Source: Acholeplasma laidlawii PG-8A (GTDB lineage: Bacteria > Bacillota_I > Bacilli_A > Acholeplasmatales > Acholeplasmataceae). From it: a stretch of 32,000 bases of DNA. The notes under the pieces were generated by a model, which worked only from the letters and a program-made list of their open reading frames with translations, was not told the DNA's origin and did no database searches. The stretch is taken from the NCBI RefSeq assembly GCF_000018785.1, contig NC_010163.1, positions 570,001 through 602,000 of the forward strand, in the 5' to 3' direction. Within the stretch, counting starts at the first letter, position 1; each line of letters starts with the position of its first letter. The translations under genes and the position numbers were made by a program. Below are positions 4,940 through 22,778 of this stretch, piece after piece.

Positions 4940-4945
4940 ATTAGA

Positions 4946-5190
4946 AACGCTATGAAGTGAAAAAGTAATTTATAATAAAATCATAAAAGAGATTAAGAGA
5001 ATTGGTGAAACTCTTATACCCTATAAATGAAAGTCATCACTGAGCGGATTAGGTGAAATTAATTTAGTAGCTTAATTCGGAGTAACTTTACGTTATAAAA
5101 GTTCAATGAAGGTGCACAATTTATTTTGTGAACTAAGGTGGTACCGCGAATTTTCGTCCTTAGGCTGTTTATCAGTCTAGGGATTTTTAT
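4946..5190 (+). promoter_or_regulatory. T-box riboswitch leader, probable valine specifier (GUC)
   Basis: Stem I elements AGAGA and GGTGAAA (distal loop). Candidate specifier loop GAAA-GTC-A with GTC at 5033-5035. F-box-like ACGTTA. Canonical T-box sequence AACTAAGGTGGTACCGCG (5131-5148). Terminator CCTTAGGCTG/CAGTCTAGGG (5158-5182) plus a T-run. Its 5' arm CCTTAG can alternatively pair with CTAAGG of the T-box to form the antiterminator. Confidence 0.88.
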
Positions 5191-5202: not shown

Positions 5203-5763
5203 ATGCTGCCAATACTTGAAGGAAAAAGAGTTGTTTTAAGAAGTCCTAATGAAAAGGATTTAGTCTCATTTTTTTACTTTGCTTCTAAAGATAGTATTGG
5301 ACCAAATGCAGGATGGTTTCCACATAGAAATCTTGATGAGACACGTTCTATACTAAACTTACACATCAAAGAAGCTAATCTTTGGGCTATTACACTACGT
5401 GAAAATGATGTCATGATTGGTACAATTAGCCTAAATAATCTATCAAATGATCGCTTTTTTGGTAAGGGTGCTGAAATTGGATTTGTATTAGATGATACCT
5501 ATTGGAATCAAGGTATTGTTACAGAGGCTGTTTTGGTTGTTATGAATTATGTCTTTAGAGAATTAAAGTTTGATTATTTAAAGGTAGCACATGCTGATTT
5601 TAATATAGCAAGTAAGAAAGTTATATTAAAATCTGGATTTAAATTTGTATATAAAAAACATAAGCGATATATAGAAAATCCTAATATTAATTATGTTTTA
5701 TACTATGAAATTTCAAAAAAGGAGTTTTTCGAACATGAAAACAGAACTACAGACGAAATATGA
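5203..5763 (+). CDS. GNAT N-acetyltransferase, RimJ/RimL (Acetyltransf_3)-like
   Basis: 186 aa. Strong RBS TAGGAGG. The pattern LEGKRVVLRSPNEKD...IGFVLDDTYWNQGIVTEAV...KSGFKF is typical of RimJ/RimL-type GNATs. The 3' end overlaps the valS start by 29 nt. Confidence 0.8.
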   Translation: MLPILEGKRVVLRSPNEKDLVSFFYFASKDSIGPNAGWFPHRNLDETRSILNLHIKEANLWAITLRENDVMIGTISLNNLSNDRFFGKGAEIGFVLDDTYWNQGIVTEAVLVVMNYVFRELKFDYLKVAHADFNIASKKVILKSGFKFVYKKHKRYIENPNINYVLYYEISKKEFFEHENRTTDEI

Positions 5764-21439: not shown

Positions 21440-21464
21440 AAAACCTCGAAAAAATCGAGGTTTT
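21440..21464. terminator. bidirectional rho-independent terminator
   Basis: AAAACCTCGA-AAAAA-TCGAGGTTTT between convergent genes. It overlaps the stop codon of the minus-strand gene. Confidence 0.85.
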
Positions 21465-22653
21465 ATTTATGTTTATGTTTAGAGGGACTTGCAGAAACTA
21501 AGATTCTGATATATTCAATATCATAGTGTTTAAATACTGGATGAGATTTAATCGCATCATAGATTTCTGGGTAATCAATTTCTTTAATGGTAGGATTATA
21601 TTCATCTTCATCCTTGATGACCATATGTAAATGTGAGTCATGATCATGGAAGGGATTGTCTAGACCTAAGTCGTAGTACTTCACACCATCTAGGTTAATT
21701 TTAATAATTAAGTTATTATCTAAGAAAAATTGTAAGTTGTTGTAAAGTGTTGAAATGTTGGTGTATCCTTTTTTAGATAATTCTTCATAAATTTCTTTAA
21801 ATGTTAAGTGACGATCTTTTAAGACTTCAAGTAAAGCTCTTCTAGCTTTTGTAAAACGTTTATTGGATTCAATTAATTTCTGAGGTTCATTGTAGTTTTC
21901 CTCCTTTAAATCTGAATGCTTGTTAAAATAATCACTCATAATTTGATGGACTTTATTTTTAGTCAGTGTGAGTGTTTGTTGTTTGGTTTCACCAAGAACA
22001 ACTTCAACAGGCTCTAATATATGTAAATGGATTCTAGGTTTTTTCTTGTAAAGTTTTTGAATAAAATTAGGATTTTTATAGACATAGACAAATGGTAATA
22101 TTTTAGCATCAGCATCTGCAGCAAATCTAAATGCACCACTCAAGAATTTTCTAATACCCACATGATATGGCTTAATAGATGCCTCAGGCATAACAAGTAC
22201 TGGTGTTTTTTTAGATAGTTCAGTTTTTAATTCATCTAAGAAGTGTACCATAAGTTCCTTAGTTTCAGGTATTGGAATTCCACCTGCAACACGCAGTATT
22301 TTTCCTACAAATGGTAGCCCTAAATTAGATTGAAGCATCGTTACATAAATCTTTCTAGGAAATATTAATGAACCAATCCATATGGCATCAAGTACATGCA
22401 CATGGTTTGACACAAGAATGAATCTTTCTTTTTTAAGATGTTTTAAGTTCTTTTTACCCTTAATTCTAAGACCTCTAAAAATAACTCCAAACACATAAAA
22501 GACCAGAACTTTAATCAATAATACTGTAAAAAATGATAATAACTTAAAAAAAGGATTATGATTAAAGAAATTATAATCTTTAGCTAATTTGACTTTTTTT
22601 ACGTTTTTAAGTAATTGAAAATCGTGATCTACTTTTTTGTTATTATCCGCCAT
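21463..22653 (-). CDS. fusion protein: N-terminal TM anchor plus PlsC-family (lysophospholipid) acyltransferase domain plus C-terminal Fur-family-like domain lacking the Cys4 site
   Basis: Single 396-aa ORF. TM helix FFKLLSFFTVLLIKVLVFYVFGVIF. HX4D motif SNHVHVLD. PEAS (PEGT-like) and GGIPI motifs. C-terminal RFTKARRALLEVLKD...ISTLYNNLQFFLDNNLI...HDHDSHLHMVIKD...FKHYDIEYIRILV aligns by eye with Fur/PerR (TPQRxxIL...TVYNNLRVF...HxHxxCxxCG). Confidence 0.7.
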   Translation of the reverse strand: MADNNKKVDHDFQLLKNVKKVKLAKDYNFFNHNPFFKLLSFFTVLLIKVLVFYVFGVIFRGLRIKGKKNLKHLKKERFILVSNHVHVLDAIWIGSLIFPRKIYVTMLQSNLGLPFVGKILRVAGGIPIPETKELMVHFLDELKTELSKKTPVLVMPEASIKPYHVGIRKFLSGAFRFAADADAKILPFVYVYKNPNFIQKLYKKKPRIHLHILEPVEVVLGETKQQTLTLTKNKVHQIMSDYFNKHSDLKEENYNEPQKLIESNKRFTKARRALLEVLKDRHLTFKEIYEELSKKGYTNISTLYNNLQFFLDNNLIIKINLDGVKYYDLGLDNPFHDHDSHLHMVIKDEDEYNPTIKEIDYPEIYDAIKSHPVFKHYDIEYIRILVSASPSKHKHK

Positions 22654-22701
22654 AGTGAACCATCTTTCTTAATTATAAAAATTATACCATTATTTATATA
22701 A

Positions 22702-22720
22702 ATAATCACACATTATGTGA
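22702..22720. promoter_or_regulatory. interleaved inverted repeats over the -35 region of the fusion-gene promoter (candidate operator)
   Basis: ATAAT-CACAC-ATTAT (22702-22716) is interleaved with TCACA-CATTA-TGTGA (22706-22720). The minus strand has the extended -10 TGGTATAAT downstream. Confidence 0.35.
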
Positions 22721-22746
22721 ACAAAAAACTAAATAGATAACCAAAT

Positions 22747-22778
22747 AGCACTATAGATAGTGCTGTTGATGTTATAAT
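22747..22778 (+). promoter_or_regulatory. nadD extended -10 promoter with an upstream inverted repeat (candidate operator)
   Basis: AGCACTA-TAGA-TAGTGCT (22747-22764) lies at the -35 position, and TGTTATAAT (22770-22778) is the extended -10. Confidence 0.4.

Follow-up and report, generated by a model that had tools for sequence, protein, structure and literature searches.

The acyltransferase–Fur fusion gene of Acholeplasma laidlawii PG-8A: a probable one-base deletion in the PG8 lineage

The fused gene and its surroundings

Within a stretch of 32,000 nucleotides (nt) of the Acholeplasma laidlawii PG-8A genome, referred to here at its full length as the window, a minus-strand open reading frame (ORF) joins an acyltransferase and a Fur-family regulator in a single product of 396 amino acids (aa). 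The gene diverges from nadD–nadE and converges on rsmH. Comparison with related loci indicates that the fusion is in all likelihood a recent accident of the PG8 laboratory lineage, in which the deletion of one base joined two overlapping genes, rather than a design favoured by selection. Residue numbers are those of the fused 396-aa protein unless stated otherwise, and the coordinates of the features, together with the loci used for comparison, are collected in Table 1.

The product is identical to ABX81174.1, SQH56778.1, RED20268.1 and WP_012242505.1 of A. laidlawii, and the ORF corresponds to ACL_RS02790, as mapped via the promoter alignment in the supplement of PMC5138195 and via gene order (hrcA being RS02750, with RS02790 eight genes on). 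The bipartite ORF is already known and annotated. Its UniProt entry is named "bipartite protein", and it was noted by Fisunov et al. 2016 (PMC5138195), who predicted a TGTGTGATT site in its promoter and gave its function as "Lipids metabolism"; the sequence that they align as the promoter of ACL_RS02790 is the one preceding the fused ORF in the window. In the literature searched, no statement was found that ties the fusion to PG8 alone or to the deletion of one base.

A preliminary description of this DNA had read the gene as one uninterrupted frame of 396 codons on the minus strand, diverging from nadD–nadE and encoding an N-terminal transmembrane helix, an acyltransferase core with HX4D and PEAS/GGIPI motifs and a cysteine-less, Fur-like C-terminal part. 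This reading agrees with what was found here: the translated frame is open throughout, hydropathy and a structural model both place a helix near the N-terminus, Pfam recognises the acyltransferase domain, the motifs are invariant or nearly so among homologues, the comparison with PF01475 and the superposition of folds were both positive for the C-terminal part, and the whole 396-aa protein contains not a single cysteine. The extent given for the Fur part needs correction, in that the domain starts at residue 257 (nt 21885) and not at about residue 265.

Two separate genes in related strains and species

In every other A. laidlawii strain examined, as well as in four other Acholeplasma lineages and one metagenome contig, the acyltransferase (249–264 aa) and the Fur protein (138–143 aa) are encoded separately. 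The closest relative (locus L001, 95% identical) has an acyltransferase of 261 aa, and the next gene, in the same neighbourhood, encodes a FUR protein of 142 aa and overlaps the first by 23 nt. Likewise, strain 8195, whose gene pair (WIF89097.1 and WIF89096.1), with an overlap of 23 nt, occupies the same locus with the same neighbours and promoter, makes two polypeptides of 261 and 142 aa, whereas the window encodes one product of 396 aa. Relative to the two-gene operon of A. laidlawii the amino-acid identity is 93–99%, and the Fur part differs by 1–3 residues only. The separate arrangement extends to A. granularum, A. equirhinis, uncultured Acholeplasma and one distant relative (Table 1), and the junction is also unfused in a short JGI metagenome contig (L019). 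The unfused loci share the divergent nadD–nadE and convergent rsmH neighbourhood, and in most of them the two genes overlap by 8–23 nt. Since the outgroup species carry separate genes, the unfused state is taken as ancestral. Moreover, in most loci the acyltransferase gene contains, within its last 8–23 nt, the start codon of Fur and its AAGGAGG, an arrangement that implies coupled translation of the two.

The combined architecture was also sought beyond these loci. A homology search with the whole 396-aa protein gave 90 relatives, nearly all of about 244–294 aa, none of which (0/90) has a FUR domain, and no match in two word-indexed searches carries PF01553 and PF01475 together. A HMMER scan over 1.84 billion cluster representatives gave 1142 matches; each of the best 150 of these 1142, which were inspected, covers one half of the protein only, be it residues 1 to about 255 or 256 to about 393. 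A conserved architecture of a membrane-tethered transcription factor is not supported by these sequence comparisons. In a protein collection clustered at 90% identity, the fusion was observed to draw acyltransferases of 261 aa and Fur proteins of 142 aa together into a single cluster; because the representative of this cluster is a 261-aa protein, the fusion is hidden in homology searches and unrelated proteins are clustered together.

The deletion at the junction

The fused and unfused states differ at one base. In the relatives, Fur is opened by ATG AAA CCx CAG (MKPQKLIESNKRF...), and the acyltransferase frame stops a few codons later at TGA. The junction alignment reads ...AAGGAGGAAAACTAYAATGAAACC, then G or A, then CAGAAATT... 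in the relatives and ...AAGGAGGAAAACTACAATGAA-CCTCAGAAATT... in the window; that is, ATGAAACC of the unfused loci corresponds to ATGAACC in the window, one A being lost directly after the Fur start codon. The AAA is retained in the A. laidlawii-group loci L001, L003, L014–L016 and L019, and in L006. As a consequence of the missing A, the acyltransferase frame is shifted into the Fur frame and continues as ...NYNE-PQKLIESNKRF... through to the Fur stop codon. The preliminary description had singled out nt 21850–21950 as the region to be checked for a frameshift, and the fusing deletion, at 21886–21887, indeed lies there. The ribosome-binding site and start codon of Fur and the stop codon of the acyltransferase persist at the junction as relics. 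As read from the window sequence, the Fur part has no in-frame ATG, GTG or TTG ahead of V325, and thus no free Fur can arise from a canonical start.

The deletion is common to the window, NCTC10116 (LS483439.1, L002), the PG8B-type variant L010 (JACAOH01; carried by 9 contigs and 4 protein accessions) and PG8RMel (L013), the last being a de novo SPAdes assembly of MiSeq reads (PMC5764945). The window and NCTC10116 differ by 1 nt in 7.2 kb, located in nadE. Because the deletion is shared by several assemblies that differ from one another elsewhere, it is regarded as real and not as an error. All the fused assemblies belong to the PG8 lineage (PG-8A, NCTC10116 and PG8B derivatives), which points to one event in one strain lineage. 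Against the closest unfused strains, synonymous divergence (pS) amounts to only 0.012–0.04, and hence the fusion appears to be very young.

The acyltransferase half

The acyltransferase part equals the free-standing gene of 249–264 aa in the relatives minus its final 5–6 codons. The Pfam acyltransferase model PF01553 matches residues 63–190 with E=3.2e-15 and passes the gathering score (56.5 bits against a cutoff of 23). Only one strongly hydrophobic segment is present, at residues ~33–64. Like the HX4D motif, P127/I128 (GGIPI) and P156/E157 (PEAS) vary little or not at all across 37 homologues. The two halves of the protein were modelled separately, and the model of the first 255 residues (predicted local distance difference test, pLDDT, 88.6) has Thermotoga maritima PlsC (5KYM) as its top fold match, with E=3e-8, followed by the GPAT 1IUQ, PatA and LpxM. 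With T. maritima PlsC and the wider GPAT/LPLAT superfamily, to which PatA and LpxM belong, the fused protein shares the fold, the HX4D motif and an N-terminal membrane-anchoring helix, but it has PEAS and GGIPI in place of PEGT.

PlsC was found by the fold search alone, no sequence in the PDB matching the acyltransferase half at E ≤ 0.01. Similarly, the PlsC-specific NCBIfam model TIGR00530 scored 45.7 bits, below its cutoff of 102.95, and the other NCBIfam matches of the 396-aa protein, to models of Aas-type acyltransferases, Irr and PerR, were all below threshold as well. On account of the low TIGR00530 score and the lack of a PDB sequence match, the enzyme half is classed from its sequence within the PlsC/LPLAT superfamily but outside the canonical PlsC enzymes.

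A. laidlawii makes acylated glucolipids. In many of the longer relatives of the enzyme the acyltransferase domain stands at the C-terminus, and 9 of the 10 longer relatives tested are fusions with a GT4 glycosyltransferase; P0087 likewise is a GT4–acyltransferase fusion, and a homologue of 34% identity adjoins a GT4 gene (Table 1). This recurrent fusion to, or proximity of, GT4 glycosyltransferases suggests a role of the enzyme subfamily in the synthesis or acylation of glycolipids, rather than that of a housekeeping PlsC.

The Fur half

The Fur part equals the free-standing 142-aa Fur of the relatives minus Met-Lys. PF01475 matches residues 264–338 with E=1.5e-9, again passing the gathering score (38.5 bits against a cutoff of 23.1). 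A combined alignment of acyltransferase and Fur sequences (A4) misplaced Fur rows over the enzyme part and was rejected; the C-terminal 140 residues were modelled with 16 homologues. In the resulting model (pLDDT 76), about 130–139 columns align with full-length crystal structures of the Fur family, and the match spans both Fur domains, the N-terminal winged helix and the C-terminal alpha/beta dimerisation domain. The top fold match is Magnetospirillum gryphiswaldense Fur (4RB1, E=1e-7, template modelling (TM) score 0.65–0.76), and Mur (5FD6), Francisella tularensis Fur (5NBC), Pseudomonas aeruginosa Fur (1MZB) and PerR (3F8N) follow. Against 4RB1, Rhizobium leguminosarum Mur (5FD5/5FD6) and 1MZB the match is full-length, with TM scores of 0.64–0.76 at a sequence identity of 18–22%; the Acholeplasma subfamily differs from these proteins in an additional conserved DNPxH segment before the SHLH motif.

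By sequence, the closest structures are Bacillus subtilis PerR (2FE3/3F8N) and Streptococcus pyogenes PerR (4I7H), with E=7.5e-5 and 2e-6. The TxYNNL recognition helix is common to PerR and the Fur part, whereas the Cys4 zinc site is found in the PerR proteins only: all 18 of the 18 aligned members of the Acholeplasma Fur subfamily are free of cysteine and hence lack the structural Cys4 site. Fur proteins without a Cys4 site are well known, examples being P. aeruginosa Fur, M. gryphiswaldense Fur, Mur and Irr, and by analogy with these the absence of Cys4 is no bar to membership of the Fur family. The absence of the CxxC pairs is thus a trait of the entire Acholeplasma subfamily and has no connection with the fusion.

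The positions invariant in the 18-member alignment include H282, D328, D332, H336, H341, H343 and E358, with D360 conserved in at least 90% of the members. The hidden Markov model (HMM) alignment places H282 on H37 and D328 on D85 of PerR; the assignment of metal ligands is ambiguous, in that an alternative alignment to F. tularensis Fur exists and the model has a pLDDT below 50 at residues 76–82 of the Fur part. In a hand alignment, the position that we take to correspond to D104 of PerR is occupied by a Glu (E358), a feature of Fur rather than of PerR.

Comparison within the species shows strong purifying selection on the gene, with a ratio of non-synonymous to synonymous divergence (pN/pS) of 0.03–0.08. 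In the PG8 lineage, the Fur part departs from that of the nearest unfused strains at a single residue: E318K, located on the first strand of the wing in the winged-helix domain. Glu occupies this site throughout the rest of the subfamily (Table 1), and PerR of B. subtilis, S. pyogenes and Campylobacter jejuni likewise has Glu here.

Further changes in PG8 derivatives

Compared with the window, the PG8B-type assemblies show five differences in 7.2 kb; the two located in this gene, V81L and P127T, each alter the amino acid. PG8RMel carries, in addition, a nonsense mutation in codon 256; over 6768 nt nothing else sets it apart from L010, the sister assembly of PG8B type. This mutation sits exactly on the ancestral gene boundary and leaves an acyltransferase of 255 aa without the Fur domain; given that PG8RMel is viable, the Fur part is dispensable in culture. 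In this one melittin-resistant strain the junction nonsense may, judging from the sequence, be a candidate adaptive change. E318K, the junction nonsense and P127T are compatible with relaxed or altered constraint; pN/pS was computed in this regard, with too few substitutions for a conclusion.

Proteome data

The fused ORF is probably ACL_0556, an assignment made from gene order and the peptide counts in Table S8 of PMC3139596. The same table lists ACL_0558, a tag that was considered for this gene and set aside, as gene order and peptide counts make it most likely nadE; in the literature searched, ACL_0558 appeared in no main text. In the coverage given there for the PG-8A proteome, ACL_0555 and ACL_0557–0560 are listed and ACL_0556 is absent. 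Since the mapping of the ORF to its tag is itself inferred, this absence argues weakly for a low abundance of the protein. No mention of the fused protein is made in the melittin proteome paper.

Promoter and candidate operators

The operon promoter has an extended -10 element, and a perfect 18-bp AT-rich palindrome, ATTATTTATATAAATAAT, occupies the spacer between -35 and -10. This palindrome is conserved as far as A. granularum, and in A. equirhinis a second, near-identical copy follows the -10 element (L011:2466-2483). It is distinct from the TGTGTGATT site predicted in PMC5138195, which is instead contained in a second inverted repeat, TCACATAATGTGTGA, that is palindromic within A. laidlawii only. 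Neither ATTATTTATATAAATAAT nor TCACATAATGTGTGA has copies elsewhere in the window beyond chance, and no regulon was defined from them. Autoregulation by the Fur protein is plausible.

A further inverted repeat, AGCACTAT-CT-ATAGTGCT, was observed at 22744–22767, between the -10 element of nadD and the acyltransferase promoter, and is conserved in A. laidlawii only. The scan classed it as terminator-like; its position better fits a putative operator of nadD–nadE. A search for the CIRCE pattern gave no match at ≤1 mismatch and has no relevance to the fusion. Elsewhere in the window, a T-box leader (RF00230, 115 bits) lies at 4943–5164 on the plus strand, upstream of an ORF starting at 5203.

Table 1 Positions of the fused gene, its parts and promoter elements in the window, and loci or proteins compared with it (L and P numbers)
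Feature	Position	Strand	Basis or remark
Fused ORF, 396 codons plus stop, no interruption	21463..22653	-	ORF translation
Acyltransferase part, residues 1-255	21889..22653	-	PF01553, fold match 5KYM, 261-aa orthologues
N-terminal membrane helix, residues 34-59	22477..22554	-	Hydropathy and AlphaFold model helix
HX4D catalytic motif NHVHVLD, residues 83-89	22387..22407	-	N83, H84, D89 invariant in 37 homologues
Fur-family domain, residues 257-396	21466..21885	-	PF01475, subfamily alignment, PDB PerR matches, fold search
Codon K318	21700..21702	-	Glu in 17/17 other subfamily members
Site of fusing mutation, AA run (AAA in relatives)	21886..21887	-	Pairwise alignment, 12 junction strings, metagenome contig
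Relic Fur ribosome-binding site AAGGAGG, inside fused ORF	21900..21906	-	Same in A. laidlawii relatives, L006, L011
Relic Fur start, ATG 21888-21890, out of frame, 5-codon ORF MNLRN*	21873..21890	-	Junction alignment
Ancestral acyltransferase stop TGA, now out of frame	21869..21871	-	Junction alignment
Bidirectional intrinsic terminator, common to convergent rsmH	21440..21464	.	Terminator scan
Extended -10 TGgTATAAT of operon promoter	22681..22689	-	Conserved in most Acholeplasma loci
Perfect 18-bp palindrome ATTATTTATATAAATAAT, -35/-10 spacer	22689..22706	.	Candidate Fur-type operator
7-1-7 inverted repeat TCACATAATGTGTGA, overlaps -35, contains TGTGTGATT	22706..22720	-	
V81L	22411-22413; L010:3241		PG8B-lineage assemblies (P0095, P0102)
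P127T, GGIPI motif	22273-22275; L010:3379		PG8B lineage; P127 invariant in 37 homologues
PG8RMel (NELN02) nonsense G-to-T, codon 256 GAA to TAA	L013:3766 = window nt 21888	-	
Unfused A. laidlawii-group loci	L001, L003 (strain 8195), L014 (JGI genome), L015 (CP103951.1), L016 (Logan contig)		
Unfused loci of uncultured Acholeplasma (metagenome-assembled genomes)	L004, L006		
Unfused A. granularum locus	L005		Two genes without overlap
Unfused A. equirhinis locus	L011		14-nt overlap
Unfused distant relative, 38% identity	L012		8-nt overlap
GT4-fused or GT4-adjacent relatives of the acyltransferase	P0137, P0148, P0150, P0151, P0154, P0156, P0170, P0174, P0183, P0087; L017:2501-4543		

Discussion

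The origin that best accounts for the fused gene would start from a two-gene operon, in which a membrane-anchored PlsC/LPLAT acyltransferase of ~260 aa was followed by a cysteine-free Fur regulator of ~142 aa. In the PG8 lineage, one A would have been lost from the AAA run directly after the ATG of Fur, whereupon ribosomes translating the acyltransferase would miss the TGA and read on in the Fur frame, yielding a single polypeptide of 396 aa composed of the acyltransferase minus 5–6 C-terminal residues and Fur minus Met-Lys. The enzyme half would presumably keep working, the Fur half would be carried as a cytoplasmic passenger at the membrane, with repression of its own promoter weakened or lost, and the fused state would be tolerated in culture. 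No evidence contradicting an origin by deletion was encountered. The preliminary description had attached more to the fusion, seeing in it either a membrane-tethered transcription factor or a Fur fold put to use in the control of acyl transfer, and had called for the architecture to be surveyed across genomes; an evolved fusion of either kind is not borne out, as the orthologous loci carry two separate genes and the acyltransferase–Fur combination occurs in none of the 150 best matches among the 1.84 billion representatives.

Some observations do qualify this account. The candidate metal ligands of Fur (H282, D328, H336, H341, H343, E358 and D360) are all intact, and with the ligands intact, the ORF open and the Fur domain expected to face the cytoplasm, the regulator may be active despite its tether. 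What hints there are of relaxed constraint come from single substitutions without statistical significance, and the chance of at least two of the five PG8B differences falling in this gene is ~0.2. Furthermore, the fused assemblies all descend from one strain, and their independence is one of sequencing, not of biology. A fusion that is functional as such, in this strain only, would have the tethered Fur dimerise, sense metal and repress its own promoter, or modulate or dimerise the enzyme. In its favour, the Fur domain is complete and predicted from the model to fold as a full Fur monomer, the conserved His/Asp/Glu positions are in place, the two natural tails make a linker of ~20 residues and operator-like palindromes lie in its own promoter; E318K in the wing of the winged helix could raise its affinity for DNA. 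We nevertheless consider it unlikely, as the architecture occurs in no other lineage examined, the open frame, given how recent the event is, cannot yet reflect selection, the viable strain PG8RMel has had the Fur part removed by a nonsense mutation, and the product apparently went undetected in the PG-8A proteome, if it is indeed ACL_0556 (PMC3139596, Table S8).

The remaining alternatives concern whether a separate Fur still exists in PG8. With the ribosome-binding site and ATG of the relic intact, and with the TAA stop of the relic ORF overlapping an ATT in the Fur frame (TAATT), free Fur might still be made by re-initiation at this in-frame ATT (codon 261), from which PGAP calls a 136-aa Fur in PG8RMel, or by frameshifting, and regulation would then be essentially unchanged. 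However, ATT is a very poor start codon, the next conventional in-frame start (ATG, GTG or TTG) comes no earlier than V325, and programmed frameshifting was rejected for lack of a slippery motif, which together make continued production of free Fur very improbable. Even less credible is that the strain has two genes and that the fused frame stems from an error of sequencing or assembly in a short homopolymer. A single-base difference in a run of A is the classic error type, yet this run is merely 2–3 bases long, and the same deletion is present in the window, NCTC10116, L010 (and 8 similar places) and the MiSeq-based de novo assembly of PG8RMel, which differ at other positions and are hence not copies of one record.

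In carrying a transmembrane segment and a cytoplasmic DNA-binding domain on one polypeptide, the PG8 fusion resembles ToxR and CadC. The latter are conserved and selected proteins with sensory domains, whereas the PG8 fusion, known from sequence, would be a strain-specific accident with an enzyme as its anchor. A more far-reaching scheme, in which the coupled Fur–acyltransferase operon links metal or oxidative status to lipid acylation, the tethered Fur of PG8 works, and P127T and the junction nonsense aid adaptation to melittin, is in our view rather improbable.

An origin by recent deletion calls for caution, since a striking ORF combining an enzyme with a transcription factor in the reference genome of a model mollicute would then be a one-base accident of the type-strain lineage. 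Unless flagged as such, the PG8 fusion is unfit for claims about a Fur–acyltransferase architecture, for Rosetta-stone inference and for the reconstruction of regulatory networks. Compared with wild strains such as 8195, PG-8A, the strain in standard laboratory use, probably has an altered or disabled Fur regulator, with possible consequences for work on its responses to stress and metals. The conserved acyltransferase–Fur operon, together with the GT4 fusions, offers a lead on how the acylation of glycolipids may be controlled in Acholeplasma.

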